From positions 78,376-142,375 of the forward strand of contig CAZSVP010000002.1 in NCBI GenBank assembly GCA_964610335.1: DNA of 64,000 nucleotides, read 5' to 3'. Below the pieces are notes generated by a model. That model did no database searches. It was not told where the DNA came from and saw only the letters and a program-made list of their open reading frames with translations. Made by a program: the position numbers and the translations under genes. This document shows, piece after piece, positions 13,934-59,848 of the stretch (position 1 is its first letter; each line of letters starts with the position of its first letter). This DNA comes from an uncultured Candidatus Saccharibacteria bacterium (GTDB taxonomy: Bacteria > Patescibacteriota > Saccharimonadia > CAILAD01 > BJGX01).

Positions 13934-14269
13934 TTATTCTCCCTCCTCAAGAGCTTCGTACAGGATCTTGTAGGCTTCTTCTACCACAGTTGGAGGGTTG
14001 CGCCGAATCAGCTTGCGAGCTGTGTGAACACACACTGTCCAGATGATCATGTAGATTGCCAACGATGCACATAGTCCACCGATCATCACGGCCAGGCCAG
14101 GGTCAGCACTTCCCCCAAAGACCATCGTGAGGCCTACGCCTGTGAACATAGCATGCATCCAAAGCGCCTGGAACCACAACGACCGACTAAACGGATTGGC
14201 ATCGAGATAGCCAGCCAACAGTCCTGCTCCATGATGGAGATACCAGAACTCGTCTGGCTTACGCCTCAT
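13934..14269 (-). CDS. Hypothetical membrane protein (elevated GC)
   Basis: 111 aa with 2-3 TM helices; local GC clearly above the genome background; start/stop overlaps the upstream ORF. Confidence 0.55.
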   Translation of the reverse strand: MRRKPDEFWYLHHGAGLLAGYLDANPFSRSLWFQALWMHAMFTGVGLTMVFGGSADPGLAVMIGGLCASLAIYMIIWTVCVHTARKLIRRNPPTVVEEAYKILYEALEEGE

Positions 14270-14589
14270 GGTCGTTCCTTGGAATCGTCGCGAAGGTCGA
14301 GGCTCTGACGCTGCGACAGCCGGACGATGTCCCGACGGCCACCGTAGTAGACCCGAAGCTTGGCGTTGACCAGCTTGATGGGCTCACCCACTACCACAAA
14401 CAGCAAGGGTAAGCCAAAGGCTAGCAACAAGCCGATCGGAATGGAAAGCAAGCTCCATAGCAGGTAGCTCCAGCGCTCGTTGAGAAGTGCCATCAGACAG
14501 CCACCTGTGATCACCACGCTGCACATCAGCATGATCACTATCTCGTAGGTCACACTCAGATTGCGTTGGTAATTGGTATCGTCGTACAA
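14266..14589 (-). CDS. Hypothetical membrane protein (elevated GC)
   Basis: 107 aa with two TM helices and a C-terminal soluble segment; translationally coupled to the next ORF. Confidence 0.55.
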   Translation of the reverse strand: MYDDTNYQRNLSVTYEIVIMLMCSVVITGGCLMALLNERWSYLLWSLLSIPIGLLLAFGLPLLFVVVGEPIKLVNAKLRVYYGGRRDIVRLSQRQSLDLRDDSKERP

Positions 14590-14640
14590 GACAAAGCCTC
14601 CAGGTTGAGAAAGAACAATTGTTGGCGATAATACGCCGTC

Positions 14641-14674
14641 GGGCGGTCTCGGAGCGCGATGTCCGAGACCGCCC
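14641..14674. repeat. Perfect 13-bp inverted repeat hairpin (GGGCGGTCTCGGA-8nt-TCCGAGACCGCCC)
   Basis: Seen in sequence between two high-GC ORFs; no U-run follows. Confidence 0.7.
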
Positions 14675-14698
14675 TAGTTGATAGCGCCTGAGGTGCCA

Positions 14699-14947
14699 CT
14701 AAGCGGATTCGTCAGGTGATTCCGCGCGGCTCAAGCGCTCTTGCACCACTCGCAGGGTTGCCTCGTCGATTGAGTCGGCTGGTCCTGCGGCTGGATGCTT
14801 GGCCACTTCTGCATCAGTCGGCTTACGCCGCTGGCTGAGTGGTGTTACCACGTTTGAGACGTGGTGGGTTTCATCGGCCAGACTCTCGTCTGGCGCTGGC
14901 ACGGTATCGTCATCGCCTGGCATTGCTGCCTCCTGGAATGATGACAA
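14699..14947 (-). CDS. Hypothetical acidic/Pro-rich protein (high GC)
   Basis: 82 aa; GC-rich codons; RBS GGAGG upstream. Confidence 0.45.
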   Translation of the reverse strand: MSSFQEAAMPGDDDTVPAPDESLADETHHVSNVVTPLSQRRKPTDAEVAKHPAAGPADSIDEATLRVVQERLSRAESPDESA

Positions 14948-15128
14948 CCTCCGCCCGTGCGCCCCATCGTATTTTGGATGGAAGCCTCTCCGGCAAGCCG
15001 GCTCGAGGTGCAGATATTGTGCTACTAAAACCTATTAATTGCAAGCATAACTACCACAAATTGTAACAAGCCAAGAAATATAGGATAATAAGCATAAGTA
15101 TATATAACAACTAGCAAAGAAAGTCACG

Positions 15129-15551
15129 ATGGCCAAAAAGAAAACTTCCGTAGCCAGAATCAAAAATCAAACTAAGCAAGAAAATAATTCATACGTCAAT
15201 TGGCTAATAGGTATAGTGATTGTTGTATTGGTTGCAGTTATTGGCATTGTAGTCGTAAACTTCTCCGATGCTGCCAATGCTCCAAACGGACAAGGTACAT
15301 ATCGTATAGAAAGCGCACAAACTTCTCCTGATGGTGCAACTACTAAAATTACATTTTCTATCGACCGTAACTATACGTTGACTAGAGTTGGAAAGTTTCA
15401 GTCTGGAGCTATCAAGTGGAAGCTAAATGGCCAATGTTATACAGTTGCGAGCGCTGCTGGGAGTGACTTTAAATCACTTGGTACAAAGCGAGAAAAATAT
15501 TACGACAATCAGCAGATTGTAGCTACTAGAAAAACCTCCTGTAATCTCTAA
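15129..15551 (+). CDS. Membrane-anchored/secreted hypothetical protein
   Basis: 140 aa with N-terminal basic region plus one TM helix; AT-rich promoter region upstream; terminator follows. Confidence 0.55.
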   Translation: MAKKKTSVARIKNQTKQENNSYVNWLIGIVIVVLVAVIGIVVVNFSDAANAPNGQGTYRIESAQTSPDGATTKITFSIDRNYTLTRVGKFQSGAIKWKLNGQCYTVASAAGSDFKSLGTKREKYYDNQQIVATRKTSCNL

Positions 15552-15582
15552 CAAAGGCTAAGGTTGTTTCAAAATCAACAGT

Positions 15583-15607
15583 AAAGAGCCCCGCTCGGGG
15601 CTCTTTA
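15583..15607. terminator. Bidirectional intrinsic terminator (aaaGAGCCCCGctCGGGGCTCttt)
   Basis: 8-bp GC stem with flanking A-run and T-run; terminates fusA (minus) and the plus ORF. Confidence 0.85.
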
Positions 15608-15635
15608 CTTAGATCTTACATGAAGAATTTGCTAT

Positions 15636-17747
15636 CTAGGATGTACCAGCTTCACGAGCAGCAGTATATTTGCCCTTGAGCTCCTCGGCTACTTGGCCAG
15701 GAACCTCAGCATAGTGGTCAAATTCCATAGCGTAAGCTGCACGACCCTGAGTCATACTGCGCAAGCTAGTAGAGTAGCCAAACATCTCAGCTAGTGGTAC
15801 AAACGCCACTATGTGCTTAGCACCACTACGATCTTCCATGTTCTCAACACGACCACGCTTGGCATTGATATCACCTATCACATCACCCATGAACTCTTCA
15901 GGAGTAGTTACTTCTACTTTCATGGTAGGCTCCATAATAACTGGAGTGGCCTTGCGAACACCCTCTTGGAGCGCCATGCTACCGGCAATCTTAAAGGCAA
16001 CTTCACTAGAGTCCACCTCGTGGTAACTACCATCGTAGAGTTTGCAATGAACATCTACTACTGGATAACCAGCAATTACGCCGTTCTGCATGGCTTCTTT
16101 GACGCCAGCTTCTACAGGATTTATATACTCCTTGGGGATAGCACCACCAACGATAGCGTTTTCAAATTCAAATATCTTGTGTTTGTCGTCTTCTTCAGTT
16201 TTGGCAAGTGGGCTAAGCTCTAGCCAGACATGACCAAATTGACCACGACCACCTGATTGGCGCACAAACTTGCCTTCCACTTGAGCAGTACTCTTAATGG
16301 TTTCACGGAAGGCTACCTGCGGACGACCAACATTGGCCTCGACCTTGAACTCACGCTTCATACGGTCTACCAACACGTCGAGATGCAACTCACCCATACC
16401 CGCAATGATAGTCTGGCCAGACTCTTCGTCAGTAGTTACACGGAAGGTAGGATCTTCTTCGGCCAAGCGAGCTAGTGCCAAACTCATCTTCTCTTGGTCG
16501 GCTTTGGTCTTAGGCTCAACGGCAATACTAATAACTGGCTCAGGAAATTCAATGCTTTCAAGCAACACGTGTTGCTTCTCATCGCACAGAGTGTTACCAG
16601 TCACAGTGTTTTTGAGTCCTACTGCAGCAGCTATTTCACCAGCGTAGACTTCGTTTACCTCTTCGCGATTGTTGGCGTGCATACGTACGATGCGGCCAAT
16701 TCGCTCTTTCTCGCCGGTACTTACATTTACTACATAGCTACCTGATTTGAGCGTGCCCGTATAAACACGGAAAAAGCACAGCTTACCAACAAATGGATCA
16801 GTTGCTATCTTAAACGCCAACCCAGCAAATGGCTCATCATCGCCCACCTTGATTACTTTTTCTTCGCCAGTCTTAGCATCAGTGGCAAGTGGCGGAGCGA
16901 TATCGAGAGGGCTTGGCAAGTAGTCTACTATCAGATCAAGTAGCTTCTCTACCATCACGCCACGACCATCGCCACCGCTTACTATGAAGAAGTCGCCGCG
17001 CAGCACGCTCTTGCGGATTACTTCTTTGATTTCTTCTTTGGTCAATTCGCCGCCGTCGAGGTATTTCTCAAGCAATGTGTCGTCAGATTCTAAAGCAGCT
17101 TCGATCAAATGATTGCGATACTTCTCAGCCTTCTCGCGCATGTCTTCAGGGATCTCGCCTTCAATCAGCTCCTTGTCAGTATAGTCACTATAGGTATAGG
17201 CTTTCATATCCACTAAGTCAATCACGCCATTGATCTCTTGTTCGAAGCCAATTGGCAGATGAATAGGATAAGCATGACGGCTCAAGCGCTCATGAATACT
17301 CTCGAGCGACTTGTAGAAGTCACCACCGGTTTGGTTGATCTTATTAATAAAACAGATGCGGGGCACACCATATTTGTTGGCTTGGCGCCAAACAGTTTCG
17401 GACTGGGGCTCCACACCCATCTTACCGTCAAAGATAACGGCAGCGCCGTCAAGCACACGCAAGCTACGCTCTACTTCGACCGTAAAGTCGATGTGACCAG
17501 GAGTGTCGATGATGTTGATACGATGCTTGTTCCAAAAACAGGTGGTAGCAGCCGAAGTAATAGTGATCCCACGCTCTTGTTCCTGTTCCATCCAGTCCAT
17601 GGTAGCCTCGCCCTGATGAACCTCACCAATCTTGTGCACCTTACCAGTACGGTAAAGGATGCCCTCGGTAACGGTAGTCTTACCGGCATCGATGTGAGCA
17701 ATAGTCCCTATATTACGAGTAACCTCAAGTGAATATTCACGTGCCAT
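15636..17747 (-). CDS. fusA: Elongation factor G
   Basis: 703 aa with [17 protein letters not shown] and EF-G domains IV/V. Confidence 0.97.
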
Positions 17748-17877
17748 AACGTGTTGTAGTATCCTTTCTTAAATTCTAGTGCGTAAAAGTAATGTAAAGA
17801 CGGTCAGCACTAAGCTGACTGTTTGCGGATAATTATAGCTGATTTCTTGATAGGACACAAGCAACAAACATTAATGT

Positions 17878-17907
17878 ATTGACATTTAGAGGCTTTGCTG
17901 GTTAAAT
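17878..17907 (+). promoter_or_regulatory. Candidate promoter (TTGACA-18-TTAAAT) for the plus-strand high-GC cassette, divergent from fusA
   Basis: attGACAtttagaggctttgctggTTAAATatataac lies about 55 nt upstream of the GTG at 17961. Confidence 0.5.
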
Positions 17908-17960
17908 ATATAACTAGCTGTACCAACCATATCCATCCAGCACTCTCAGGGAGGTCCTAA

Positions 17961-18362
17961 GTGAGTGCAAGTCAGCAAGAAAAGATAGAGCAGTACCGTT
18001 TCTGGGGCGAGCGAGTCGCGAGTGGAGACACCGCGTTCGTGATGCCACTGGCCCGTGCCATCAGGTCTGGTGAGATCACCGCACCGAAGGCAGGGACCAC
18101 TCAGAAGCGGATCCGCGAGGTCATGCGCCAGCGCTTTCACGAGGCCCACCAGAGGGCGATCTGGTGCAAGAAGTACGGCGAGCGCATGAACGGCCGCGGC
18201 GTGCTATGCAAGCTCGGCCTGGAGCTGGCGGAGTCGGCCAACTGGGGCAACCTGCTCCACGTGACGCCCACCGACTTCGGAGCCAGCTTCGAAGAGCTAT
18301 ACGAACTCGCCGATCACTTCGGTGTAAGCGACCGCCTGCAGTTCGTCGCCATGGCGAGCTGA
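17961..18362 (+). CDS. Hypothetical protein (about 62% GC; GTG start after GGGAGG)
   Basis: 133 aa; RBS GGGAGG 5 nt upstream; strong GC shift relative to the neighbours. Confidence 0.6.
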   Translation: MSASQQEKIEQYRFWGERVASGDTAFVMPLARAIRSGEITAPKAGTTQKRIREVMRQRFHEAHQRAIWCKKYGERMNGRGVLCKLGLELAESANWGNLLHVTPTDFGASFEELYELADHFGVSDRLQFVAMAS

Positions 18363-18408
18363 TCGCGAGTTCAACATGGGTGCCTCATCGGGGGAAAGGC
18401 ACCACCCG

Positions 18409-18453
18409 TTCGGGGCTCCGGCACTTGGCCGGAGCCCCGGGTGGGTCATTTTT
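18409..18453 (+). terminator. Intrinsic terminator (CGGGGCTCCGGC-loop-GCCGGAGCCCCG followed by a T-run)
   Basis: 12-bp GC stem followed by gtcatttttattt. Confidence 0.8.
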
Positions 18454-18531
18454 ATTTATATTGACTTTATTGACCAAAAGTTGTAGCATAGATTCCCGAT
18501 CGCTACATTCGCCCACCAAGGAGGCATAACT

Positions 18532-18981
18532 ATGCCTAGCGACGCATACCACACGTTGGCACTGAAGTCCGCTACCCTAGCTCACTACCGTGCCGTCCAT
18601 GAAGGAAGTGGTACTCACGAGCAGTACAGACTGGTACTCAAGGCCATCGATGCCGGTGACATCATACCTGTTGAGATCGGCACCAGCTACCGAGAACTCG
18701 GAGCCCATAATCGCCAATGGATTCGTAATCTGTTGGAGGATGCAAGCTTCGACGGTCTCCCGCAGCACATGCCAGGGGATGTGAGGGTCGCTTACAGGCA
18801 GCTGATCAAGCAACTCGAGCTGCTCAATAGCCTGCAGCATCCTCGCCTGCGGCTCACCCTCGGCCAGCTCAAGATCACTCTGCCGCAGCTGCGCCAACTC
18901 GGCGAGCCGCTTGGTCTGAGCCACCTCGTGGACGACGCCGACCTCGCAGTCGGCAGCTGGCACCACAAGAAGTCCGCCTGA
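18532..18981 (+). CDS. Hypothetical protein (high GC)
   Basis: 149 aa; RBS AAGGAGG; promoter-like TTGACT-17-TAGCAT upstream. Confidence 0.6.
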   Translation: MPSDAYHTLALKSATLAHYRAVHEGSGTHEQYRLVLKAIDAGDIIPVEIGTSYRELGAHNRQWIRNLLEDASFDGLPQHMPGDVRVAYRQLIKQLELLNSLQHPRLRLTLGQLKITLPQLRQLGEPLGLSHLVDDADLAVGSWHHKKSA

Positions 18982-19011
18982 TTCACTCGCCCGTCAACCA
19001 GGAGGTTTCTC

Positions 19012-19308
19012 ATGGGCAAACATGTGGTAACCAACAAGGAGATCAAACGGCTGTACCGTCGGCTCGAAGGGCTGCCATTTGTGCACAAGGTGCACACCTG
19101 CGCCCTCCAGCCAGGAGCAGCATCGGGCAAGCCTCGCGTGGAGTACCGCCACGGCAGTGCCGAGCCTGGCTCGCACCGCGTACCGGCAGTCATTAAGGCT
19201 GGAGGCTGTGCCCAACGGGTGTTCATCACCCTACGCGTTGACGAAGGCGAGTCCTTCAGCGACAAGCTCAAGTTGTTGCTCGCCGAGCCCGAGGTGATCG
19301 CCAACTGA
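19012..19308 (+). CDS. Hypothetical protein (high GC)
   Basis: 98 aa; RBS AGGAGG; co-oriented and closely spaced with the previous ORF. Confidence 0.55.
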   Translation: MGKHVVTNKEIKRLYRRLEGLPFVHKVHTCALQPGAASGKPRVEYRHGSAEPGSHRVPAVIKAGGCAQRVFITLRVDEGESFSDKLKLLLAEPEVIAN

Positions 19309-19365
19309 CACCGTCCCCGTCTGAGACCGGATGCAAAACGCTCCTGTTTCGGCCGGGGCGTTTTG

Positions 19366-20034: not shown

Positions 20035-20198
20035 GTAAGTAAGTATTAAGTAAAATGGCAGAAGTTAAAAAGTGCTTACTCGCATTATTTCAGTCAAAAA
20101 ATTTTGAGTCAAGCATAATTACTTCTACATATCTACACTGACTGATTGGTTAGCTCAAAGTACGCTTAGAGTGTTCTTTGACAACTTGGAGGAAACCA

Positions 20199-20900
20199 AT
20201 GAGCAAGCTCACTACTATCGATACCCTACCCATCCCCATGCTTGTTCTCGACAGCGGCCCATGCGCTGGCAAGTCCACCATTCTCTCAGCCATCGAAGAT
20301 CGGTTCGACGAGCAAGTTCTGACAGTGCCTGAAGCTGCAACCCAAGTACTGGCTGAAGAGGTTGTAGCCAAGCCCGATCAGAATCTGCTGGAGTGGTACG
20401 ACCGAATCGACGCTGCCGAGTCCAAGGCTGCAATCTGGCGCGAATATAGACATCACCTGCAAGATGCTGTGCTCAAGCGCATGATCGAGCTCGAAACTGT
20501 TGCTCAGCAACAGGCCTGCGAACAAGGCAGGAAGCTGATCGTCGTGGACCGTGGAGCTGCCGGAGTGAGTCATTTCCACCCTGATGGCAATGCTTGCTGG
20601 TCCAAGCTCACCTGGGCACGAATCCACCATCTGGATGCAGTGTCCGCACTCAGCCGATACCATTCTGTCATCTTGTTGGAATCACTGGCAATACACCATC
20701 CAGAGTTGTACAAAAAGCACTGCGCCAGCAACCCAGTTCGAGGCGAGACTACTCAAGAGGCAGTGGCGCAGCAATGCGGCATTCGTGCTGCCTGGAGCAA
20801 ACACGCACGCTGCGCCCATATCTGCAACTTTGGGCGCAGCATCGATGATGTGACCAGGCTGGTTTACAACCACATCGAACAAACAATTGGCGAACTATGA
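20199..20900 (+). CDS. P-loop NTPase / small kinase-like protein (AAA_28/AAA_33-like), elevated GC
   Basis: Walker A DSGPCAGKST and Walker B-like LIVVDRG; GGAGG precedes the ATG at 20199 (the ORF is open from 20178). Confidence 0.6.
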   Translation: MSKLTTIDTLPIPMLVLDSGPCAGKSTILSAIEDRFDEQVLTVPEAATQVLAEEVVAKPDQNLLEWYDRIDAAESKAAIWREYRHHLQDAVLKRMIELETVAQQQACEQGRKLIVVDRGAAGVSHFHPDGNACWSKLTWARIHHLDAVSALSRYHSVILLESLAIHHPELYKKHCASNPVRGETTQEAVAQQCGIRAAWSKHARCAHICNFGRSIDDVTRLVYNHIEQTIGEL

Positions 20901-21283
20901 GCGGCAATCGCTGCCAAGTACAGGCTGCTGTATGGCGAGCCATGCGACTGGCTGAAGTATCACTCGACACTCCGGGAGCCACCGAAGTAGTTCGAGCTAT
21001 CACTTGGATCATTATGCAGCAAGCCATGATCCTCCAGCGCTTCCCACTTGATCAGAATGATCAGCACACCACGCAAGGATTCTGCCCAGACAATTACTGG
21101 CCACTCAAGTTCGGCAAGTTCTTGCACCGCGCGCAAACAATCGGCCTAGACTATCCCGAAGGTCGCCAAGCCATCGCCGAGCACGCCGCTACAGGAGTTG
21201 GCCTAATGGCATCGGTCTGGCGTTTGCATGGCTCGCCACCTCATATAAACGAGGTAGCTACCATTACAGTCAAACTCGAGTAG
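20897..21283 (+). CDS. Hypothetical protein (high GC), translationally coupled to the P-loop gene
   Basis: 128 aa; ATGA start/stop overlap with the upstream gene. Confidence 0.5.
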   Translation: MSGNRCQVQAAVWRAMRLAEVSLDTPGATEVVRAITWIIMQQAMILQRFPLDQNDQHTTQGFCPDNYWPLKFGKFLHRAQTIGLDYPEGRQAIAEHAATGVGLMASVWRLHGSPPHINEVATITVKLE

Positions 21284-21374
21284 ATCCGACTAGCCTGTCA
21301 AAGTTATGCTTGGTAAAGCATGATTACCCAAGTATAATCACCCCAGATCTTTCCCACTAGCCGAGGAGCAAACA

Positions 21375-22034
21375 ATGCCGACAACCGAAGCCCCAGTAAT
21401 CACCGAGCTTGAAGAAGTTGTGGCTCTCGAAGCTGAGCTACAAGCCATGTGCGCTGAGTACGACAGTCTTGGTGTCGAAATCTCGCGTTTGCAAGCCGTG
21501 CGAAGCGATATCGCTTTTGCAGTCACATTCCACGACAAGTCGCGCGAAGACGGAGAACCCTTGGTCAAGCGCTACAACCGAGTGGTGCGTCAAGCCGCAG
21601 CCGATCTGCTAGCCGAGCGCCAACTGGGGTGGTGCCTGGCAGGTGGACACTTCTGCAATGAGGCTGAGCTGTCATGTGCGAAAGCCATGTTCAGCCGCCG
21701 GAGCTACGACGTGAAGGACGGCTACGAAGACCACCATAAGTCAGTAATTGCCACAGCCTGCGCAGCTCACCCCGCTGGCGGATACCAAAATCCTGACTGG
21801 GGTCACAGCAAGCGGTTGGTAGCACGCAACGTTCACAACGTTGGGTTGGTGAGAAGAGCGATCAGTCGCTATCTGTTTGACTGCGGTTTCGAGAACCGAG
21901 AGCTTCACAGGTTCTTCGCCGAAGCAGGCCTGCCAACAGACATGTACTACCGCGATCGTGATGGCTGGTACTTCCGGCCAATCCCCGGACAAGACGGTCC
22001 GATGTACGGCCGAAAAGTCATCAATCTCGGCTAG
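21375..22034 (+). CDS. Hypothetical Cys/His-rich protein (high GC)
   Basis: 219 aa; promoter TTGGTA-17-TATAAT and RBS GAGGAG upstream. Confidence 0.55.
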   Translation: MPTTEAPVITELEEVVALEAELQAMCAEYDSLGVEISRLQAVRSDIAFAVTFHDKSREDGEPLVKRYNRVVRQAAADLLAERQLGWCLAGGHFCNEAELSCAKAMFSRRSYDVKDGYEDHHKSVIATACAAHPAGGYQNPDWGHSKRLVARNVHNVGLVRRAISRYLFDCGFENRELHRFFAEAGLPTDMYYRDRDGWYFRPIPGQDGPMYGRKVINLG

Positions 22035-22055
22035 CACGAGAACCAAACTTTCAAG

Positions 22056-22089
22056 AGCCCCGACGAGCCCCGATTCGTCGGGGCTCGTC
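22056..22089 (+). repeat. GC-rich hairpin (GACGAGCCCCGA-ttcg-TCGGGGCTCGTC), member of the GAGCCCCG hairpin family
   Basis: Perfect 12-bp stem directly after the 21375..22034 ORF; no U-run. Confidence 0.7.
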
Positions 22090-22142
22090 ATATCTCCATA
22101 TAATGCAAAGAATTATTTCTAGCAGTGAAGTACTAGAAACTC

Positions 22143-52658: not shown

Positions 52659-53030
52659 TTACGATAATTCTGCAATTACTGCGTTTTCGATGTATTCTAA
52701 TCTGGGATTTGCTAACTCTCCCTCTACTGCAATTACATCGATTCGCTTGCCATAGACATCGTAGCGGGGGTTTTCGCTGAGCCAGAGCTGGGCCGCAAAT
52801 TGCAGCTGTTGGGCTTTGTGGAAGCCAACTGCACTGATCGCTCCGCCATGTGAGCTACTGTGACGATACTTCACCTCCACAAATACCAGCTCGGATCGAT
52901 TGTGCGCAATAATATCAATTTCGCAAAAGCGATTCCGAAAATTTCGTTTGATAATTTTATAACTATGAGCCTTAAGATATTCACAGGCTAGCTCTTCAGC
53001 TCGCTGACCATCTAATATGTGTTGTGCCAT
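52659..53030 (-). CDS. yraN: YraN/UPF0102 family endonuclease
   Basis: 123 aa with YraN-like core (GEQRAEELACEYL...EIDIIA...VFVEVKYR). Confidence 0.8.
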   Translation of the reverse strand: MAQHILDGQRAEELACEYLKAHSYKIIKRNFRNRFCEIDIIAHNRSELVFVEVKYRHSSSHGGAISAVGFHKAQQLQFAAQLWLSENPRYDVYGKRIDVIAVEGELANPRLEYIENAVIAELS

Positions 53031-53086
53031 TGCTCAATTGTAAAACAGCCTCTAGTATCAGCGCGAGCATAAGTCTAAACGCAGCA

Positions 53087-53116
53087 GCCCCCGATTCACA
53101 ATGTGGAATCGGGGGC
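53087..53116 (-). terminator. Hairpin terminator (GCCCCCGATTC-loop-GAATCGGGGGC) after a high-GC ORF
   Basis: 11-bp stem lying 20 nt downstream of the stop at 53139 (minus strand). Confidence 0.6.
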
Positions 53117-53138
53117 GTAGCCGCAGGACAGCAGGTGA

Positions 53139-53666
53139 TCAACCGACGTGGACAGTCTGGCCGACGATGGGCTTCTCTGGTGGCTGGGCCATGTCGGCGC
53201 GCAGCGAGTTGCGGATGCTTGTGACCTTGGCATCGTCAGGTTGGTCGCCCTTGCCCAGTTGTCGATCGCGAGCATCGCGCTCGCGCGTGTTGGCGGCCCA
53301 CTCGGCCTCGGACTTGAAGCCATCGAGATAAAGCAGCCATCGCTTCCAGACCTCGTAGGCACGCTTGACGCGATCGATGTCTGCTGGACGAGCGATGATG
53401 AGCTTGAAGCTGATCGTATGTTCCTTGGTATCGACAGTGATTGCCTCGTCGCCGATGGCTCGCAGCATGGCCTTGAGCACCTTACGGAACTCCGGCCTGA
53501 TGTAGTAGCACATCCCCAGGTCGTCGAGCATGCCACGGTCCACTTCGAACTGGTACCCGTGCTGACCGATCTCGCCGTACATGACGTCGTGGTAGCCCAG
53601 AGAATCGTCCTCATGCCAGACGGCTCTGAACAGCGTGTCGGTTGTGTATTCGTATTTCTTGGACAT
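53139..53666 (-). CDS. Hypothetical protein (about 60% GC)
   Basis: 175 aa; RBS GGGAGG; upstream promoter TTGTAA-17-TATACT. Confidence 0.6.
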   Translation of the reverse strand: MSKKYEYTTDTLFRAVWHEDDSLGYHDVMYGEIGQHGYQFEVDRGMLDDLGMCYYIRPEFRKVLKAMLRAIGDEAITVDTKEHTISFKLIIARPADIDRVKRAYEVWKRWLLYLDGFKSEAEWAANTRERDARDRQLGKGDQPDDAKVTSIRNSLRADMAQPPEKPIVGQTVHVG

Positions 53667-53737
53667 GGTTGCCTCCCTGCGGCAAGATCAAATGCAAGAG
53701 ACCATCTCCAACATTCGGCGGTAGTATACAATAAAAG

Positions 53738-54349
53738 CTAAGTATTTACAATATTTTTGCAGAAGCTCTGGCGGTGCAGATCGGTGAGACCATGTTCGGC
53801 AATGGCATTACGATGAGATTTGGTAGCGTAGCCTACATTGGTATCCCAACAGTACTCGGGATATCGTTTGCAAAACTCATACATGTAGTTGTCACGAGCG
53901 ACTTTGGCGATGATACTAGCCGCCGCCACACAAGCCACTTTCTGATCAGCCTTCACAAGTGTCTCAGCAATTTCAAAATCAGCCAAATAGTTATAGTTGC
54001 CATCGATTATGATTGAGCTAACATCAGCGTCGAGCTCTTCGAGCGCGCGCTCGTAAGCAAGCGTTACCGCCCAAGTCATGCCCATCTCGTCTATCTCAGT
54101 ATTACTCACCCAGCCTATCCCACAGCCAACTGCCTTAGCTCGAATTTTGGGTGCCAACAATTCGCGAGCTTCCCGATTGAGCATCTTGGAATCATGCAGA
54201 CGAAGCCGGCAGTTCTTGGGTAATACTACAGCCGCAGCCACTAGCGGTCCGGCCAAACAACCACGACCAACTTCGTCGATGCCACATATCAAAACTTTGC
54301 CATCACGGCGCAATTTGTTCTCCATAGTATAACTCGCACTCACCCTCAT
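53738..54349 (-). CDS. rnhB: Ribonuclease HII
   Basis: Motifs GIDEVGRG and DSK; the start may be the internal Met (MENKL). Confidence 0.9.
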   Translation of the reverse strand: MRVSASYTMENKLRRDGKVLICGIDEVGRGCLAGPLVAAAVVLPKNCRLRLHDSKMLNREARELLAPKIRAKAVGCGIGWVSNTEIDEMGMTWAVTLAYERALEELDADVSSIIIDGNYNYLADFEIAETLVKADQKVACVAAASIIAKVARDNYMYEFCKRYPEYCWDTNVGYATKSHRNAIAEHGLTDLHRQSFCKNIVNT

Positions 54350-54390
54350 ACAACTTAGTATTAATTAAAACGTAATAAGTGGCAAGTACT

Positions 54391-54510
54391 AAAACAAAAG
54401 TAGCCTTGTAAGATACAAGGCGTGATTGAGGATCGGAGTAAGGCGTAGATTACTACGTTGAACGAGAACCGGAGATCACAACGCAGTAGTTTGCAGGCTA
54501 CTTTTGTTTT
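54391..54510 (-). terminator. Large structured rplS 3' element: 15-bp inverted repeat (AAAACAAAAGTAGCC / GGCTACTTTTGTTTT) enclosing nested hairpins
   Basis: The 5' arm overlaps the rplS stop/last codons; the 3' arm ends in a U-run on the minus strand; inner hairpins CTTGTAagaTACAAG and a GATTACTACGT motif. Confidence 0.55.
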
Positions 54511-55169
54511 TTTGCGGCTTTGTCGAGACCTTCTTGCACTTCGTCAGCAGGCGCCTGAGCCTCGTCGTCTTCTAACGCTTGTTTTTCTTCTTTGGGAGCA
54601 CTGGCAGGCACATCGTCTTGAGATGCCGAAGCATCTTCCTTGGCAGCAGCTTTGTCTTCCTTCTTCACTTCAGTATCAATCTCTTCGGTATCAGCTTGGT
54701 TGAGCGCGTCGTCTTTAGCAGCCTTGTCGGATTCTTTCGCTTCGGCTTCAACAATCTTAGCTTGTTCTTCGGCTGCAATATCTTGTGCTGTTCGGCCATC
54801 GGCTTGGTTGGCAGCGGTCTTGTCAAAATCAGCCTCTGCCATACGGGCAGATTTACCTTGGCGGGCACGCATGTAGGTTAAGAAAGCACGACGTACCTTG
54901 CTGCGCTTCATTACTTCGATCTTTTCGACATTGGGGCTATGTACAAACCAACTCTTTTCTACGCCTACTCCACTAGTAATCTTACGTACAGTTATATAAG
55001 CGGCCAGGCTATTGACCTTGCGATAACGAATCACCAAACCTTCAAATACCTGGATACGGCTCTTGTTACCTTCACGGATTTTTTGGTGCACACGTACAGT
55101 ATCACCAACTCGCACATCAGCGATTTTGGCCTTCTTCATCGAGTTTTCGAGCACATCGATCTTGTTCAT
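54498..55169 (-). CDS. rplS: 50S ribosomal protein L19 with a ~105-aa acidic/Lys-rich C-terminal extension
   Basis: N-terminal 115 aa match L19 (VRVGDTVRVH...); low-complexity E/K/A/D tail after RARQGKSARM. Confidence 0.9.
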   Translation of the reverse strand: MNKIDVLENSMKKAKIADVRVGDTVRVHQKIREGNKSRIQVFEGLVIRYRKVNSLAAYITVRKITSGVGVEKSWFVHSPNVEKIEVMKRSKVRRAFLTYMRARQGKSARMAEADFDKTAANQADGRTAQDIAAEEQAKIVEAEAKESDKAAKDDALNQADTEEIDTEVKKEDKAAAKEDASASQDDVPASAPKEEKQALEDDEAQAPADEVQEGLDKAAKKQK

Positions 55170-55240
55170 AATCGCTCCATTGTAACAGATGTGGCGCTTC
55201 AGGTCAAGACCACAAATAAGCTACTACTAACCTGATATAC

Positions 55241-55269
55241 TTGACAAATATGCATTTTATTGGTATAAT
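55241..55269 (+). promoter_or_regulatory. Consensus promoter TTGACA-17-TGgTATAAT for a high-GC membrane ORF
   Basis: Counted directly: -35 at 55241-55246, -10 at 55264-55269. Confidence 0.7.
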
Positions 55270-55326
55270 GTGTTACGTCCAGATCGGTTTATCTGGAGAA
55301 ATTCGGACCTCAACAGAAGGAATGAC

Positions 55327-55639
55327 CATGTTCGATAGCATTCCACAGTATTTCCGGTACGCACTCGGTGCTGCCGGAATCATCACTGCACTCTTCCTAC
55401 TCGGATGGGTGCTTTCTGCGGCTGCGAACCACCACTGGCATGCAGTCGTCCACTCAGACCAACGCACCGCACGCCGACTTCTGGTGGCCAAATGGGTACT
55501 AGTCCCATGCTACTTCGGTGGCGTGATGGTGGCCATCGGTCTTGTGCCGTCGGCCGCACCATTGATCATGGCGGTCGCGCTGGTGATCGGGTTGACCTGG
55601 GTGATCGTGACGATTCGAATCGAGAATCGACTCGCATAA
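55327..55639 (+). CDS. Hypothetical membrane protein (about 57% GC, 3 TM helices)
   Basis: Start at MTMFDS after AGAAGGAA; the ORF is open from 55241, but that overlaps the promoter. Confidence 0.55.
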
Positions 55640-55662
55640 CCATTCCAATCGTGAGGTTTAAA

Positions 55663-55702
55663 CCCTCCGGGAACACCATCCCCGGAGGGTGTTCTTGTTT
55701 TT
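55663..55702 (+). terminator. Intrinsic terminator (CCCTCCGGG-loop-CCCGGAGGG followed by tgttcttgttttt)
   Basis: 9-bp GC stem plus T-run; overlaps the dnaE stop, so it may serve the convergent genes. Confidence 0.75.
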
Positions 55703-58700
55703 ATACAAATTTAGTAGCCGGCTGACGTTGCAACTTGTAGTTGTCCTTACCAACTAGATCGGCCAAAGTTTGCTGTAGCTCTTGAGTCAGTTCTACACCA
55801 CTCGGCAGCTTCATAGCCTGCCCAGAGCTAGTAAAGAACAACACTACAGGAGTACTGCCCTTGGCACCATCAAGAACGTTCTTGACCTTCATGAGTTGCT
55901 CAGCATCTGTACTATTGGCTAGTCTTAGAAATACAGCAGAGACTGCATGGTCGGAAGGTACTGGAGTATCTGGATTACTTTCAGGCTTTTCTTTTGGTGG
56001 TGGTGAGTGTTTAGCTACGTCAAAGTCGATTTTCTTTACAGCATCTGCCATGATCTTAAGCTCATCAGTAGCATTACCCTCGCGATCTCGAGCATTGATC
56101 TTGCCCTTGATTTCCAAAACAGCATCTTCGACTACCAAGTCTCCGTATTTCTCAAAAGTACGCGGAAACACAATAAGCTCAATCTCACCATCAAGTGTTT
56201 CTAATTGCACAAAAGCCATAGGGTCACCATTCTTGGTATGGATCTTGCGCATGCCGATCACTATCCCACCCACTGTGACAGCCTTATTGTCATCATTGCG
56301 ACCATATTTCTTAATAGTCTCGGTTTTACCAAGTAAGTAATTACGGAAGTCGTCGAGCGGATGTTTGCTTATGTATAACCCCAGCAGTTCCTTCTCCCAC
56401 AACAGCTTTGTACGAGAGTCGCTAACTTCGCTAGGTGGATCGAGTTGCAAAGGCGGAATCTCTGCCTCCATACCCATCGATCCAAAGATATCAATTTGCC
56501 CAGACAGGGCGCTCTTTTGTGCTCGGCCGGCATAGATAGTAATGCGATCCATATTTGCCAGCAACATATCGCGCTCACCAAAGCCATCAAAGGCGCCGCA
56601 CTTAAACAGTGATTCCATAACTTTCTTATTTATCACCGTCGCATCGACACGTCGACAGAAGTCTTCAATTGACTTAAATGCGCCACCATCATCACGGGCC
56701 TCCAGAATTTTCTCAACTGGCCCCATGCCCACATTCTTTATAGCACCAAGCCCAAATCTGATCTTGTTGCTTTTGGGGACTACTGCAAACTCAGCAAAGC
56801 TTTCGTTGATGTCTGGTGGTAATACTTCCAAATCCATCTTCTTGCACTCAGCTACCTCTATAGCAATTCTATCTAAGTTCTCATGGTCGGAAGTGAGCAA
56901 AGCAGCCATAAAAGCTGCCGGATAGTGCGCCTTGAGCCAGGCCGTCTGTACAGCAATCAAGGCATAGCAAGCAGCATGGCTTTTGTTGAAACTATAGGCC
57001 GCAAAGTCCTCGAGGCTCTTCCATAGATCTTCTATGAAATTCTTATCTACTTGGCTAGTCTTAATACCGCCTTCTATAAACTCTTTCTTCATCTTGGCCA
57101 ATACTTCAGGTATCTTCTTACCAATACCCTTACGCAACGTATCGGCTTGGCCACCTGTAAATCCACAGAGATCCTTGGCAATTTGCATTACTTGCTCCTG
57201 GTATACTATTACACCATAAGTGTTTTGCAATGCATCTTGCATCTTGGGGTGCCCATACTGGACAAGTTCGGGGTTGTGCTTGCGATTGATAAAATCGTCG
57301 ATCCACTGCATTGGACCTGGTCTATAAAGCGCACCCATAGCTATGATGTCGTCAAATCGATCAGGCTTGAGCTCGCGCAGATAGCGTTTCATGCCAGCCG
57401 ACTCGAACTGAAATACTCCAGTAGTATCACCACGCGCAAACAGCTCATAGGTAGCTGCGTCATCGATAGGAATTTGAGTAGGGTCTATCTCTTCACCATA
57501 TACCTTGCGCACAATGCGTAATGCATTTTTGATAATAGTAAGGTTGCTCAAGCCCAAGAAATCAAATTTGAGCAGCCCTAGATCTTCAACAGTAGTCCCA
57601 ATAAATTGAGTAGACACACCGCCCTTGGAAGCTCTGGTAAGAGGCAAGAACTTCACCAAACTATCGGGTGCAATTACCACTCCTGCGGCATGCGTGCCTG
57701 CATTGCGAATTGTGCCTTCAAGTTGCATAGCCACATCTATGATTTGCTTGGCTTGCGGGTTGCGCTGGTACTCAGCTTGTAACTCAGGGTCATCCACTAT
57801 GAGCTTGGCGAGTTGAATATGCCGACCTTGCACGGGGGCAGGGATCTTTTTGGCTATGGCATCAACCTCGCCATAGGGTATGCCAAGTACGCGCCCGGTG
57901 TCACGCACTGCATTGCGTGCTGCCATAATGCCAAATGTTATAATCTGAGCTACTTGTTCGTGACCATACTTTTCAGTAGCGTAGGCAATTACTTCTTCTC
58001 GACGATCGTCGGCGTAGTCCATATCGATATCCGGCATGCTTATACGATCCGGGTTGAGAAACCGTTCAAATAGTAGATCATACTTCAGTGGGTCGAGCTC
58101 AGTGATGCCAGTAGCATAAGAGATGATGCTGCCAGCAGCACTACCGCGGCCTGGGCCACAAATAATACCTTGATTCTTAGACCAATTGATAAGATCCGCT
58201 ACAATCAGCATATAGCCTTCGTAGCCCATATCACCTATTACACGCAGCTCAAACTCAATCCTGTCTAACACCTCCGGACTTAGCTTTGGTTTTACTTTGG
58301 CTTCAGTTAAATCACTAACCTCCTGTTTACTAAAGCCACCGTAGCGATAGCCCGCACCTTCGAATACCAATTTGCGTAAATAGCTTTTTTCGGTCTCGCC
58401 CTTTGGTACTTCAAAGCGAGGAATTAGAATCTTGCCCAGCTCAATCTCAAGCTGACACATACTGGCAATCCTTACTGTGTTGGATATAGCTTCGGGATGG
58501 TCAGGAAATTTCTCCAACATTGCAGCACCACTATTGACCGACAAGTCCATCTCCAACTTCATGCGATTGGGCTGTTCGACAGTTGAACCCGTTTGGACAC
58601 AAAGCAAGATATCGTGGGCGTAGTGATGATCACTGTCAGTGTAGTGTGCATCACCGGTTACTACCAACGGTATGCCAGTTACCTTAGATATTTTTTGGAC

Positions 58701-59333
58701 ACCCTCATTGACCTTGCGCTGAAACTCTTGTTCAATATGCGGTTGCATCTCCAAGTAGTAGTGGTCTTTACCAAAAATATTCTGATACCACTTAGCCGTC
58801 TCAAGTGCACGCTCAAACTCATCGTTGAGTATGTATGTCCCTACCTCACCCCCAGCACAACCCGACAGCACTACTAACCCTTCACGGTATTTTTCTAGAA
58901 GCTCATGATCTACCCGAGGCTTGTAGTAAAAACCTTCGAGATTTGCGATAGTACTAAGTCTCATAAGGTTTTGATAGCCTAGCTGATTTTGTGCTAGCAA
59001 CGTCAAATGATATGGATTGCGGTCTTCGGCGCTACTCTTGTCAGTATGTTTTCGTGGCGCCACATAGGTCTCGAGTCCTATGATCGGCTTGATACCCCGC
59101 TCGACGCAGGCTTTATAAAATTCAATAGCACCACTTAGGCTTCCATGATCAGTTATGGCTACGGCAGTTTGACCCAACAACTCAACCTTACTGACTAGCT
59201 GGGGTACTTTTTGTAATCCATCGAGTAAACTGTAGTGAGTATGATTATGGAGATGCACAAAGTCTACAAAGCCTTTTGCCTTGCGGGCTTTCTCAATTAC
59301 TTCATTCTTTTCTACCTCACTCACGTCAGCCAT
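55701..59333 (-). CDS. dnaE: DNA polymerase III alpha subunit
   Basis: 1210 aa with PHP domain HLHNHTHYSLLDG, Pol III alpha core and C-terminal OB fold. Confidence 0.95.
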   Translation of the reverse strand: MADVSEVEKNEVIEKARKAKGFVDFVHLHNHTHYSLLDGLQKVPQLVSKVELLGQTAVAITDHGSLSGAIEFYKACVERGIKPIIGLETYVAPRKHTDKSSAEDRNPYHLTLLAQNQLGYQNLMRLSTIANLEGFYYKPRVDHELLEKYREGLVVLSGCAGGEVGTYILNDEFERALETAKWYQNIFGKDHYYLEMQPHIEQEFQRKVNEGVQKISKVTGIPLVVTGDAHYTDSDHHYAHDILLCVQTGSTVEQPNRMKLEMDLSVNSGAAMLEKFPDHPEAISNTVRIASMCQLEIELGKILIPRFEVPKGETEKSYLRKLVFEGAGYRYGGFSKQEVSDLTEAKVKPKLSPEVLDRIEFELRVIGDMGYEGYMLIVADLINWSKNQGIICGPGRGSAAGSIISYATGITELDPLKYDLLFERFLNPDRISMPDIDMDYADDRREEVIAYATEKYGHEQVAQIITFGIMAARNAVRDTGRVLGIPYGEVDAIAKKIPAPVQGRHIQLAKLIVDDPELQAEYQRNPQAKQIIDVAMQLEGTIRNAGTHAAGVVIAPDSLVKFLPLTRASKGGVSTQFIGTTVEDLGLLKFDFLGLSNLTIIKNALRIVRKVYGEEIDPTQIPIDDAATYELFARGDTTGVFQFESAGMKRYLRELKPDRFDDIIAMGALYRPGPMQWIDDFINRKHNPELVQYGHPKMQDALQNTYGVIVYQEQVMQIAKDLCGFTGGQADTLRKGIGKKIPEVLAKMKKEFIEGGIKTSQVDKNFIEDLWKSLEDFAAYSFNKSHAACYALIAVQTAWLKAHYPAAFMAALLTSDHENLDRIAIEVAECKKMDLEVLPPDINESFAEFAVVPKSNKIRFGLGAIKNVGMGPVEKILEARDDGGAFKSIEDFCRRVDATVINKKVMESLFKCGAFDGFGERDMLLANMDRITIYAGRAQKSALSGQIDIFGSMGMEAEIPPLQLDPPSEVSDSRTKLLWEKELLGLYISKHPLDDFRNYLLGKTETIKKYGRNDDNKAVTVGGIVIGMRKIHTKNGDPMAFVQLETLDGEIELIVFPRTFEKYGDLVVEDAVLEIKGKINARDREGNATDELKIMADAVKKIDFDVAKHSPPPKEKPESNPDTPVPSDHAVSAVFLRLANSTDAEQLMKVKNVLDGAKGSTPVVLFFTSSGQAMKLPSGVELTQELQQTLADLVGKDNYKLQRQPATKFV

Positions 59334-59370
59334 ATACCCATTGTACTAGAACCATCCACACTAATTAAGC

Positions 59371-59399
59371 TTGAATATGTTGTAATTATGATCTATAAT
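59371..59399 (+). promoter_or_regulatory. Consensus promoter TTGAAT-17-TATAAT for a high-GC ORF
   Basis: -35 at 59371-59376, -10 at 59394-59399. Confidence 0.7.
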
Positions 59400-59444
59400 A
59401 CCGCTCACCGTTGGTAGACCACCAGGATCACTAAGGAGGTGACT

Positions 59445-59807
59445 ATGTCTACCGAGTTGACAATCCAGCTGGTGAAGCGGCTGTTCGAAGCATTCTTGGG
59501 TGGCCAAGGTCGTCTCCGTGTGGAGAACGTGCCAGGTCACTACACCCGAGTGATGGTTCGAGTCGAAGGTGAGGACCTGGAAGTGCACATCGCGCTCTCC
59601 GATACCATGCCTCGGGTGCTGCGAGTGATCTACTGCCCGCAGCATCCAGGCAATTCCGCCGTCATGTTCACCACCGAGGCCGATGCCAAGTACCAGGTAC
59701 GGATGCTTGGCATCAACGACGAAACGCCCGGACACATCATCAAGAAGAGGGTTCACGAACACTTCTTGACTGTGACTGAGCGCCAGTCGCACTCGCTGGC
59801 CAGCTGA
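59445..59807 (+). CDS. Hypothetical protein (about 60% GC)
   Basis: About 120 aa; RBS AAGGAGG 6 nt before the ATG at 59445. Confidence 0.6.
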   Translation: MSTELTIQLVKRLFEAFLGGQGRLRVENVPGHYTRVMVRVEGEDLEVHIALSDTMPRVLRVIYCPQHPGNSAVMFTTEADAKYQVRMLGINDETPGHIIKKRVHEHFLTVTERQSHSLAS

Positions 59808-59822
59808 ACAAGGAGGGTGATT

Positions 59823-59848
59823 CCGTCCCGGTCGAAAGACTGGGACGG
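59823..59848 (+). terminator. Hairpin (CCGTCCC-12nt loop-GGGACGG) after the high-GC ORF
   Basis: Seen 15 nt after the stop; no strong U-run. Confidence 0.45.

Follow-up and report, generated by a model that had tools for sequence, protein, structure and literature searches.

Morons, described in phages by Juhala and Hendrix and reviewed by Cumby, Davidson and Maxwell in 2012 (PMC3594210), are independent transcription units, each carrying a promoter and a terminator. Their GC content deviates, they show up as additional DNA where relatives have two adjoining genes, and they often encode small accessory or unknown proteins (PMC3594210). In a stretch of 64,000 nucleotides from an uncultured Candidatus Saccharibacteria bacterium (contig CAZSVP010000002.1; hereafter the window), we analyzed eight short GC-rich loci that lie between housekeeping genes, denoted as islands 1 to 8. 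We consider it about 60% probable that these loci are autonomous, moron-like accessory units in the core-gene gaps of a Saccharibacteria-like chromosome, that they form a flexible and fast-evolving compartment, and that they derive from a common gene pool. As a class, they fit best among chromosomal, moron-like accessory islets whose exchange relies on homology of the flanks.

Like phage morons, the islands have a predicted promoter and terminator of their own, deviate in GC content (53-63% vs 47%), and represent extra DNA, as seen from the empty sites of islands 6 and 7 and from the contiguous str cluster in two relatives, L004 and L007. Unlike morons, they are located in the chromosome of a Candidate Phyla Radiation (CPR) bacterium, flanked by tuf, fusA, rpsG, dnaE, rnhB and radA, with no phage context or homology, and several slots hold divergent alleles instead of showing plain presence or absence. 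The strain-variable islets of competent bacteria are alike in that whole genes are replaced in fixed slots, the breakpoints fall within conserved flanks, the distribution disagrees with the tree of the flanks, and dedicated mobility genes are lacking. In contrast with such islets and with orphan open reading frames (ORFans), the islands are GC-rich with a common oligonucleotide signature, and the trait is kept by one family across genomes. Daubin and Ochman are said to have found in 2004 that ORFans are usually AT-rich relative to their own genome, while the ORFans of the islands lie 8-15 points above theirs. This GC excess in place of the typical AT excess, together with its persistence across a gene family, is what is unusual here. 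Integron gene cassettes likewise consist of a small single open reading frame (ORF) followed by an imperfect palindrome, include many ORFans and serve as an adaptive reservoir. However, the islands lack an attC core, an intI/attI/Pc platform and an array, are dispersed over 46 kb and have their own promoters; the sequences of their hairpins are unlike one another, and the island ends have no repeat family in common. Unlike insertion sequences, transposons or miniature inverted-repeat elements, islands 6 and 7 have neither terminal inverted repeats (TIRs) nor target-site duplications (TSDs) at their boundaries, and no transposase domain was present in the ORFs scanned. Saccharibacteria are naturally competent, and a promoter-ORF cassette integrates into an intergenic site via approximately 1 kb of flanking homology (PMC10633639). 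That experiment is a laboratory analogue of the cassette exchange seen between strains. No prior description of GC-rich cassettes in Saccharibacteria was found in the literature searched.

The mean GC content of the window is 47.4%. When 200-bp windows with at least 54% GC were merged, the resulting segments spanned 0.4-1.9 kb each at 53.6-58.7% GC and matched the eight loci singled out by the original prediction, an earlier annotation made from the sequence of the window. A ninth, moderately GC-rich gene outside that list encodes a NUDIX protein (54%). The 15 island ORFs in the eight loci contain 53-63% GC, and their GC content at third codon positions (GC3) was 0.57-0.80 with a mean of 0.666, compared with 0.433 ± 0.058 in 57 other ORFs (Mann-Whitney p = 4e-9). 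The claimed GC discontinuity was therefore recovered at all eight loci. The suggested comparison of tetranucleotides pointed the same way: after normalization for composition, the signature of the islands correlated with that of the rest of the window at r = 0.69, against 0.90 ± 0.02 for size-matched native samples. Between the two halves of the island set, the correlation was r = 0.83, compared with 0.72 ± 0.055 between native halves.

Codon usage in the islands is shifted chiefly from NNT to NNC, with additional gains of AAG and GAG. G-ending fourfold codons are modest (GCG 0.13, ACG 0.12, CCG 0.23), and CCA is the commonest Pro codon. In high-GC Actinobacteria, G-ending fourfold codons are common, and the island pattern differs from the actinobacterial one. 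The tuf gene likewise favors NNC codons, but G-ending Lys, Glu and Gln codons are raised in the islands and not in tuf, and an explanation of the bias by translational selection alone was rejected on this ground.

Judged from its sequence, each unit is a predicted autonomous transcription unit composed of a promoter, a strong Shine-Dalgarno (SD) sequence, between one and three small ORFs and a hairpin of the intrinsic-terminator type. A sigma-70-like promoter with at least 9 of 12 consensus positions was located 36-62 nt upstream of the island ORFs at 8 of the 10 transcription units. A strong, GGAGG-like SD was present at every unit, and GC hairpins of -23 to -35 kcal/mol followed nearly every unit at the 3' end, while island 4 had no clear hairpin. 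Five of the eight units are on the plus strand with neighbors on the minus strand. In these respects the layout drawn in the original prediction, including the strong SDs, the hairpins and the orientation against neighboring genes, was largely reproduced. Three of its promoters were found as claimed at 46011 (11/12), 55241 (12/12) and 59371 (10/12), and TTGTAA-17-TATACT was located on the minus strand. TTGGTA-17-TATAAT exists as spelled, but 3 nt away from the position given. Promoter-like sites of at least 10/12 numbered 18 in the window and 14.7 ± 3.9 in shuffles, so there was no excess of such sites. The same type of promoter precedes the native genes tuf, nusA, rplS, rpoB and the S12 operon, and hence the island signals are native in type and ordinary for this genome. 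The notable feature is rather where they are placed, at a distance of 36-58 nt in front of the island ORFs, so that an island has a signal set of its own.

Strains were compared using approximately 40 contigs of the same species, obtained by exact-sequence look-up (Logan, JGI, ENA) and 92-100% identical to the window. Based on this comparison, the island ORFs are real genes. Substitution between strains was of the coding type in 14 of the 15 island ORFs, with dN/dS of 0-0.49 and changes chiefly at the third codon positions of the proposed frames. The doubtful case is i4a, in which 6 non-synonymous and 0 synonymous differences make the coding status less secure. The junctions of islands 1-5, 7 and 8 were the same in many independent assemblies (Logan, JGI, ENA), and islands 1, 2, 3, 4 and 8 were located at the same places in all sampled strains, which excludes assembly chimeras for the latter five. 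An antisense ORF opposite i2b (18577-18966) evolves neutrally (dN/dS approximately 1-1.9) and was rejected as a gene. The alternative-frame and antisense ORFs inside the islands had no Pfam families; such spare ORFs are present because stop codons are scarce in GC-rich DNA. An all-against-all BLASTP comparison revealed no paralogy among the islands (best E = 0.3).

The most direct view of a unit entering the chromosome is given by island 6, a 669-bp strain-specific insertion that encodes i6, a singleton ORFan of 175 residues. The segment is missing in six other strains (five distinct sequences; L002, L094-L098), always with breakpoints at 53084|53754, and also in the sister species L110. It comprises the terminator hairpin, the ORF, its SD and an AT-rich promoter, so the unit arrived already equipped with a promoter of native type. 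The original prediction had proposed a domestication of foreign genes, which, if it means promoter capture, does not agree with this insert. Island 6 is located in the last codons of rnhB, whose product now ends in ...KNIVNT* instead of ...KNFV*; beyond the far junction, the former 'GTTTAG' end can still be recognized. The i6 protein had no homologue but itself in 5.8 billion clustered proteins (word-filtered) or among 1.84 billion representatives (full phmmer), and its single-sequence AlphaFold2 model had a low confidence (pLDDT 37.6).

Island 7 encodes a protein of 103 residues and is absent from L094, L095, L097, L098 and L099, which contain an unrelated 41-bp spacer instead, and from the sister species L110, while it is present in L096 and L100. 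Counted by contig, it is missing in 5 of 7, and counted by distinct lineage in 3 of the 5 that were compared. The island abuts the last codons of dnaE and changes the C-terminus from ...PATT* to ...PATKFV*. Its presence is incongruent with the tree of the flanks, as L096 carries it and L097, with 98.5% identity to L096, does not. The cassettes of the window and L096 are 93.8% identical, diverged like their flanks. The dN/dS of i7 was 0.28. From these comparisons, i7 is an old polymorphism reshuffled by recombination. In both documented insertions, the junction is 2-3 codons before the stop codon of the neighboring gene and involves no duplication. Neither a TSD nor a TIR was found at the boundaries of island 6 (53085/53753) or island 7 (55181/55713). 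Presence/absence polymorphism, suggested as a check, was thus observed for both islands. Of the proposed acquisition of foreign genes, the insertions themselves, the foreign-looking composition and the whole promoter-ORF(-hairpin) cassette as the unit are real, but the donor envisaged is not supported.

In the same region, a 42-nt sequence occurs twice (54448-54489 and 62825-62866, 76% identical), both times in intergenic DNA, namely downstream of rplS/upstream of rnhB and upstream of gatB. It has the stem CTACTGCGTTG...CAACGTAGTA and had no Rfam match. The first copy is within a 121-bp stretch (54371-54491), where L094, L096 and L098 have an unalignable spacer of approximately 45 bp. Beyond the end of the window, downstream of the gatCAB region, a two-gene block of L097/L099 (16226-17886) differs from that of L094-L096 and L098, consisting either of a 215-aa ORF and a 2-Hacid_dh dehydrogenase or of a 212-237-aa ORF and an Ldh_2-family dehydrogenase. 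This block is a further replacement-type polymorphism of the species.

Whereas island 6 was inserted, island 5 is exchanged between otherwise identical backgrounds, and in both cases the whole cassette is the unit. Alleles of i5 are 191 aa or 134 aa long and approximately 50% identical in strains whose neighboring 318-aa protein is 100% identical. When L105 was compared with L106, the flanks were 100% identical, while the identity fell to 50-70% over approximately 45990-46650, that is, over the promoter and the ORF. Conversely, the i5 allele of the window is 100% identical to that of L105 in flanks that are 2-8% different. The identity break at promoter and ORF and the shared allele in differing flanks point to the cassette as the unit of exchange.

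The i5 fold is that of the tautomerase superfamily, a beta-alpha-beta structure with a C-terminal helical extension of approximately 60 aa in some alleles, that of the window included, and Pro is at position 2 (Pro-1 after removal of Met) in 13 of 14 sequences of the family. Based on the fold and Pro-1, i5 is assigned to the tautomerase superfamily as a Pro-1 protein, with a putative catalytic role of this residue. No match to the curated tautomerase/MIF models was obtained in Pfam at E <= 0.1 or in NCBIfam, and the family profile had no match among PDB sequences. Compared with the known members of the superfamily (4-OT, cis-CaaD, MSAD, CHMI, MIF/D-DT), the i5 family has motifs of its own, GPLTPGSIE and DPxFDGDMS, and its branch was found solely in low-GC, CPR-like contigs. 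This branch is new and highly divergent. At the sequence level, the "no recognisable family" of the original prediction stood for all 15 proteins against PHROGs, PADLOC and NCBIfam and for 13 of them against Pfam; the exceptions are i5, with its tautomerase fold, and i3a, which belongs to AAA_28.

The family comprises 14 protein clusters, from 100% down to 42% identity, and 6 loci from a metagenome scan, one of them on the same contig as an earlier look-up. All relatives for which DNA was obtained are in contigs of 42-52% GC, and in every such contig the i5 gene is a GC island (56-64% GC, GC3 0.63-0.94). For relatives in four other genomic contexts, the DNA upstream is likewise AT-rich and contains a -10 TATAAT, and a GC hairpin is present as well. 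The sister species L110 has a homologue with 54% identity at the same site after radA, and the flanking proteins are 62-93% identical to those of the window (6 of 7 at 74-93%). No relatives were found in IMG/VR contigs or BFVD folds, and PADLOC gave one weak match (E = 0.004). L110 (8493-9002, compared with window 46728-48752) has neither the 318-aa alpha/beta-hydrolase-like gene nor the flavodoxin-like FMN reductase found after i5; only the homologue of a 172-aa ORF is kept there, with 62% identity.

The compartment thus contains recent insertions (i6, i7) as well as slots with very divergent alleles (i5, i2a, i2b, i4b), while the other islands are fixed in the species and absent in more distant relatives. 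With islands 1, 2, 3, 4 and 8 in every sampled strain, the original picture of cassettes that are not conserved core genes holds only in part, as at the species level these five are conserved. Between strains whose fusA is approximately 99.9% identical, i2a is 64% identical at the amino acid level; the variation is restricted to 17990-18400, while the flanking promoter and terminator are 92-98% conserved. The i2b gene occurs as three alleles with 72% amino acid identity (dN/dS 0.35-0.41; 0.27-0.41 for i2a and i2b together), next to the invariant i2c, which has dN = 0 with 8-11 synonymous changes and whose exact protein sequence occurs in 103 indexed blocks of the collection. In i4b, nt 178-474 can be aligned at 78% DNA identity (dN/dS 0.15-0.17), while the first 177 nt cannot; island 4 was found in eight further strains. 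Hypervariable genes therefore sit beside invariant partners (i2b with i2c, i4b with i4a) among core neighbors that are 95-100% identical. Taken with the turnover of alleles, this suggests a diversifying pressure, which might come from host recognition, phage interaction, or immunity and counter-defence.

The island 1 ORFs were found in all strains, with GC3 of 0.57-0.72, dN/dS of 0.12-0.49 and predominantly third-position changes. The translations of i1a, i1b and i7 contain two or three hydrophobic helices each, and these three are small membrane proteins. Island 3a is present in all strains (dN/dS 0.04-0.18; i3b 0.04-0.10), and its two ORFs are translationally coupled through an ATGA overlap. 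The i3a protein matched Pfam AAA_28 (PF13521) with E = 1.7e-11 and 45 bits, above the gathering cut-off of 27, and its translation contains the Walker A motif GPCAGKST, so it is an AAA_28 NTPase or kinase. For i3c, no family was matched in Pfam, PHROGs, PADLOC or NCBIfam, and no PDB match was found; PDB sequence searches with i8, i2c and i3a gave nothing meaningful either. Island 8 was present in every contig retrieved via i8 itself (three further distinct lineages), with 98% identity of the unit between strains and 93-95% in the flanks. Some GC-rich genes are conserved above their housekeeping flanks, synonymous sites included: dS was 0.07-0.11 for i8, compared with 0.27-0.30 for dnaE, and was 0.12-0.17 for i2c and 0.02-0.03 for i1c. 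This could reflect a recent gene-specific sweep or constraint at synonymous sites. Four tRNA genes (33975-34349 and 35283-35369, minus strand) surround island 4. ARAGORN gave no anticodon for the one at 34204-34273 and missed that at 33975-34048, which was found by Rfam. The latter overlaps a GTG-start ORF (32614-34107), so the true start of this trigger factor, called as 423-472 aa in other strains, should be further downstream.

The core genes of the window include a ribosomal protein cluster, tuf, fusA, rpoBC, dnaE and similar genes. Among the matches listed in a genome contig scan, the closest relatives of its EF-G were from 'Candidatus Saccharibacteria', Patescibacteria metagenome-assembled genomes and one unclassified metagenome-assembled genome, with 65-72% identity and the closest listed at 72%. 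These matches place the window in a Saccharibacteria-like CPR bacterium with a small genome. In more distant relatives among the matches listed (L004, L007, L011), the order rpoC-S12-S7-fusA-tuf-S10 is uninterrupted. In the window, the S7-fusA gap measures 4.5 kb and contains island 3, a NUDIX gene and island 2, and the fusA-tuf gap measures 1.9 kb and contains island 1 and a low-GC ORF. Since the cluster is contiguous in the distant relatives, islands 1-3 are additions. The S7/fusA/tuf/S10 junctions also hold inserts in the Saccharibacteria L005, L008 and L010, but these are not GC-rich. Such slots may be a general feature, but their GC-rich filling is not. The low-GC ORF next to island 1 (15129-15551, plus strand; 38.8% GC) encodes 140 aa, with a hydrophobic helix at the N-terminus. 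The window, L087 and L088 have this ORF, and L084, L085, L086 and L089 do not; being AT-rich and strain-variable, it indicates that variable slots hold AT-rich genes as well.

The S10 gene (12221-12541) is approximately 4.2 kb away from rplC (7381-8031), with the intervening region (8031-12554) filled by several genes (Table 1), so the S10-spc cluster is interrupted too, besides the str cluster. The slot between the ASCH-like gene and S10, which holds a 176-aa ORF in the window, contains other genes in other strains: a 59-aa ORF in L084 (3467-3646) and a 102-aa TM2-domain protein in L085 (3354-3662) and L086.

Table 1. Positions of the GC-rich segments, islands, island ORFs with their predicted signals, and genes between rplC and S10 in the window
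Feature	Coordinates	Strand	Description
GC-rich segment	13976-15050		55.9% GC
GC-rich segment	17901-19400		58.7% GC
GC-rich segment	20201-22100		55.0% GC
GC-rich segment	33601-35225		53.6% GC, partly tRNA genes
GC-rich segment	46026-46800		57.8% GC
GC-rich segment	53001-53725		57.2% GC
GC-rich segment	55276-55700		55.5% GC
GC-rich segment	59401-59900		57.0% GC
Island 1	13894-14947	-	GC 55.9%; between tuf and fusA
i1c	14699-14923	-	74 aa; own hairpin 14641-14674
i1b	14266-14589	-	107 aa; overlaps i1a
i1a	13934-14269	-	111 aa; hairpin 13894-13933 beyond
Island 2a	17879-18446	+	promoter TTGACA-17-TTAAAT (17879-17907), SD GGGAGG
i2a	17961-18362	+	133 aa, GTG start, hypervariable
i2a terminator	18404-18446	+	19-bp stem, T-run
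Island 2b	18461-19360	+	promoter TTGACT-17-TAGCAT (18461-18489); hairpin 19312-19360
i2b	18532-18981	+	149 aa, hypervariable, three alleles
i2c	19012-19308	+	98 aa, invariant
Island 3a	20199-21283	+	i3a-i3b pair; best promoter candidate 8/12
i3a	20199-20900	+	233 aa, AAA_28 P-loop ATPase
i3b	20897-21283	+	128 aa; ATGA overlap with i3a
Island 3b	21310-22096	+	promoter TTGGTA-17-TATAAT (21310-21338), SD GAGGAG, hairpin 22062-22089
i3c	21375-22034	+	219 aa; dN/dS 0.06-0.20
Island 4	34449-35185	-	GC 54-56%; between tRNA-Leu (35283-35369) and three-tRNA block (33975-34349)
i4b	34712-35185	-	157 aa, hypervariable
i4a	34449-34712	-	87 aa
Island 5	46011-46714	+	promoter TTGACT-17-TATAAT (46011-46039), SD AAGGGAG, hairpin 46670-46714
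i5	46089-46664	+	191 aa; adjoins radA and 318-aa alpha/beta-hydrolase-like gene
Island 6	53085-53753	-	669-bp strain-specific insertion
i6	53139-53666	-	175 aa, singleton ORFan; SD GGGAGG
i6 hairpin	53087-53116	-	
i6 promoter	53723-53751	-	TTGTAA-17-TATACT
Island 7	55181-55713	+	diverged rplS promoter region 55181-55236; promoter TTGACA-17-TATAAT (55241-55269)
i7	55328-55639	+	103 aa, approximately 3 transmembrane helices; terminator 55662-55690 and T-run
Island 8	59371-59856	+	promoter TTGAAT-17-TATAAT (59371-59399), SD AAGGAGG, hairpin 59815-59856
i8	59445-59807	+	120 aa; dN/dS 0.10-0.15
rplC-S10 gap			83-aa ORF
rplC-S10 gap	8506-8874		DUF4870/MamF-like membrane protein
rplC-S10 gap	9007-9522		GC-rich NUDIX gene; 54% GC, GC3 0.62
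rplC-S10 gap	9577-11220		ABC-F-type double ABC ATPase
rplC-S10 gap	11238-11570		ASCH-like gene
rplC-S10 gap	11645-12175	+	strain-variable ORF, 176 aa

As for how the islands are founded and spread, the junctions of i6 and i7, placed 2-3 codons before a stop codon and free of duplication, fit illegitimate recombination at the 3' ends of neighboring genes as the founding event. Later spread and allele replacement would follow natural transformation, with homologous recombination acting through the conserved flanks; the allele swaps, with their breakpoints in such flanks, fit this. The source may be a GC-rich gene pool circulating within low-GC bacteria instead of a recent import from a high-GC host; the results on i5 and i6, together with the common oligonucleotide signature, point to such a lineage-internal pool. 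We regard the GC-richness as a property that this pool has long had within these low-GC bacteria. Candidate causes of its persistence would be an unsampled reservoir, selection at synonymous sites, or biased gene conversion at recombination hot spots.

The donor suggested in the original prediction, a high-GC host, was weighed as the first alternative. It would make each island a recent and independent transfer from a high-GC organism, perhaps an actinobacterial host, that later gained a local promoter and SD. The large excess of GC and GC3, the deviant tetranucleotide signature and the insertion of i6 and i7 relative to other strains would all follow from it, and cultivated Saccharibacteria live on Actinobacteria (PMC10633639). 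So would the substitutions. When changes in the lineages of the window and L088 were polarized with L084 and L085 as outgroups, the islands had 41 changes from G or C to A or T (S>W) and 20 in the opposite direction (W>S), as amelioration predicts. However, homologues in high-GC taxa were found for neither i5 nor i6, and a patchy distribution was seen for i6 and i7 only. All i5 relatives are GC islands within low-GC contigs, including that at the syntenic site in the sister species, and i6 had no homologue in the collections searched. With tblastn, none of the 15 island proteins matched any of 50,697 phage or 72,556 plasmid records. The codon usage, with its low GCG, ACG and CCG and its shift from NNT to NNC, is unlike the actinobacterial pattern, and the i6 insert already holds a promoter of native type. 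With i5 and i6 as the two proteins searched against the large collections, a recent host donor is weakened and rather unlikely.

A shade less likely still is that the genes are native and long resident, with the high GC3 made in place by GC-biased gene conversion (gBGC) at recombination hot spots or by selection at synonymous sites. GC3 is indeed high in every i5 relative despite protein identities of 45-55% and a differing GC content of the genomes, the islands are demonstrably recombination hot spots, tuf too prefers NNC codons, and i8, i2c and i1c have a synonymous divergence below that of their flanks. On the other hand, the polarized counts in the core genes were 64 for S>W and 43 for W>S, and the per-site rates in both directions were equal to those in the islands, with an implied equilibrium GC of 0.40 for the islands and 0.38 for the housekeeping genes. 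No GC-raising process special to the islands is thus visible today in these small numbers. The G-ending Lys, Glu and Gln codons are up in the islands but not in tuf, i6 and i7 are insertions and not resident genes, and the tetranucleotide signature deviates even when normalized for composition. To our knowledge, a GC3 shift of 0.23 also far exceeds the effects of gBGC in bacteria.

That the cassettes are prophage remnants, or morons delivered by phages and left between core genes, is improbable. While the layout fits the moron definition in its own promoter, terminator, deviant GC and extra DNA relative to relatives (PMC3594210), and the ORFs are short, fast-evolving ORFans, no PHROGs match was obtained for any of the 15 proteins, the phage records gave none, and neither did IMG/VR or BFVD for i5. 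No phage structural or integrase genes were present among the ORFs scanned, and the inserts are 0.5-1.9 kb long with core genes directly on either side. Site-specific mobile elements, either integron-like or miniature transposons, can hardly be the explanation: compact ORF-hairpin units at many intergenic sites and whole-cassette indels would suit them, but the cassette ends in the window share no terminal repeats or other terminal sequence, attC-like core, TIR or TSD, the units are dispersed instead of arrayed and have their own promoters, and a Pfam scan of 37 ORFs, which covered part of the small ORFs of the window, revealed no domain of a recombinase, transposase or integrase. The family of mobile units considered in the original prediction is not borne out by these results, nor were the short direct repeats or recombinase footprints, for which it proposed an inspection of the flanks, found. 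Nor are the hypervariable ORFs likely targets of a diversity-generating retroelement, as the window contains no repeat copies of the variable regions and the variation affects whole ORFs with indels.

Several observations weigh against the reading of the islands as moron-like units from a lineage-internal pool. The GC3 of 0.63-0.94 is kept across i5 relatives that are 45-55% identical, a poor fit to foreign origin followed by amelioration; such lasting GC3 needs selection at synonymous sites or biased gene conversion, or else an unsampled GC-rich reservoir. The islands are losing GC (61 changes), the housekeeping genes change in the same direction, and the changes are few for judging an equilibrium. 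Promoters and terminators are sequence predictions, and the i1c/i1b-i1a and i3a-i3b units have no convincing promoter (best candidates 7-8/12). Of the 15 proteins, i5 and i6 were the two searched against the large protein collections, and a high-GC donor may still apply to other islands. The i6 junctions rest on the source assembly, with the i6 protein recorded on a second (Logan) contig, and relatives nearer than those listed by the EF-G scan may exist.

Episymbiotic Saccharibacteria have tiny genomes, and their genes for host range, immunity and strain individuality are largely uncharacterized. In the window, variation between strains is concentrated in compact, apparently self-expressed cassettes. 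Their composition is enough to recognize them, and some interrupt the usually inviolate rpsL-rpsG-fusA-tuf cluster. This narrows the candidates for interaction genes to a few that can be tested, in bacteria that are now genetically tractable by natural transformation. With the i5 family 10-20 GC points above every genome it inhabits, the use of GC deviation as a clock of recent transfer is also challenged. A bolder version, which we hold to be rather unlikely, is a dedicated, recombinase-free 'plug-in' cassette system, in which lineage-internal, self-expressing, rapidly diversifying small GC-rich genes are swapped by transformation in fixed slots between core genes and GC3 is actively maintained. 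If that were true, the high GC3 might be explained by an action of the products or transcripts on, in or against a high-GC host, or else by GC-rich mRNAs outlasting the host-free stage, and i6 would be a sample of a very large and essentially unsampled repertoire of effectors or immunity proteins.

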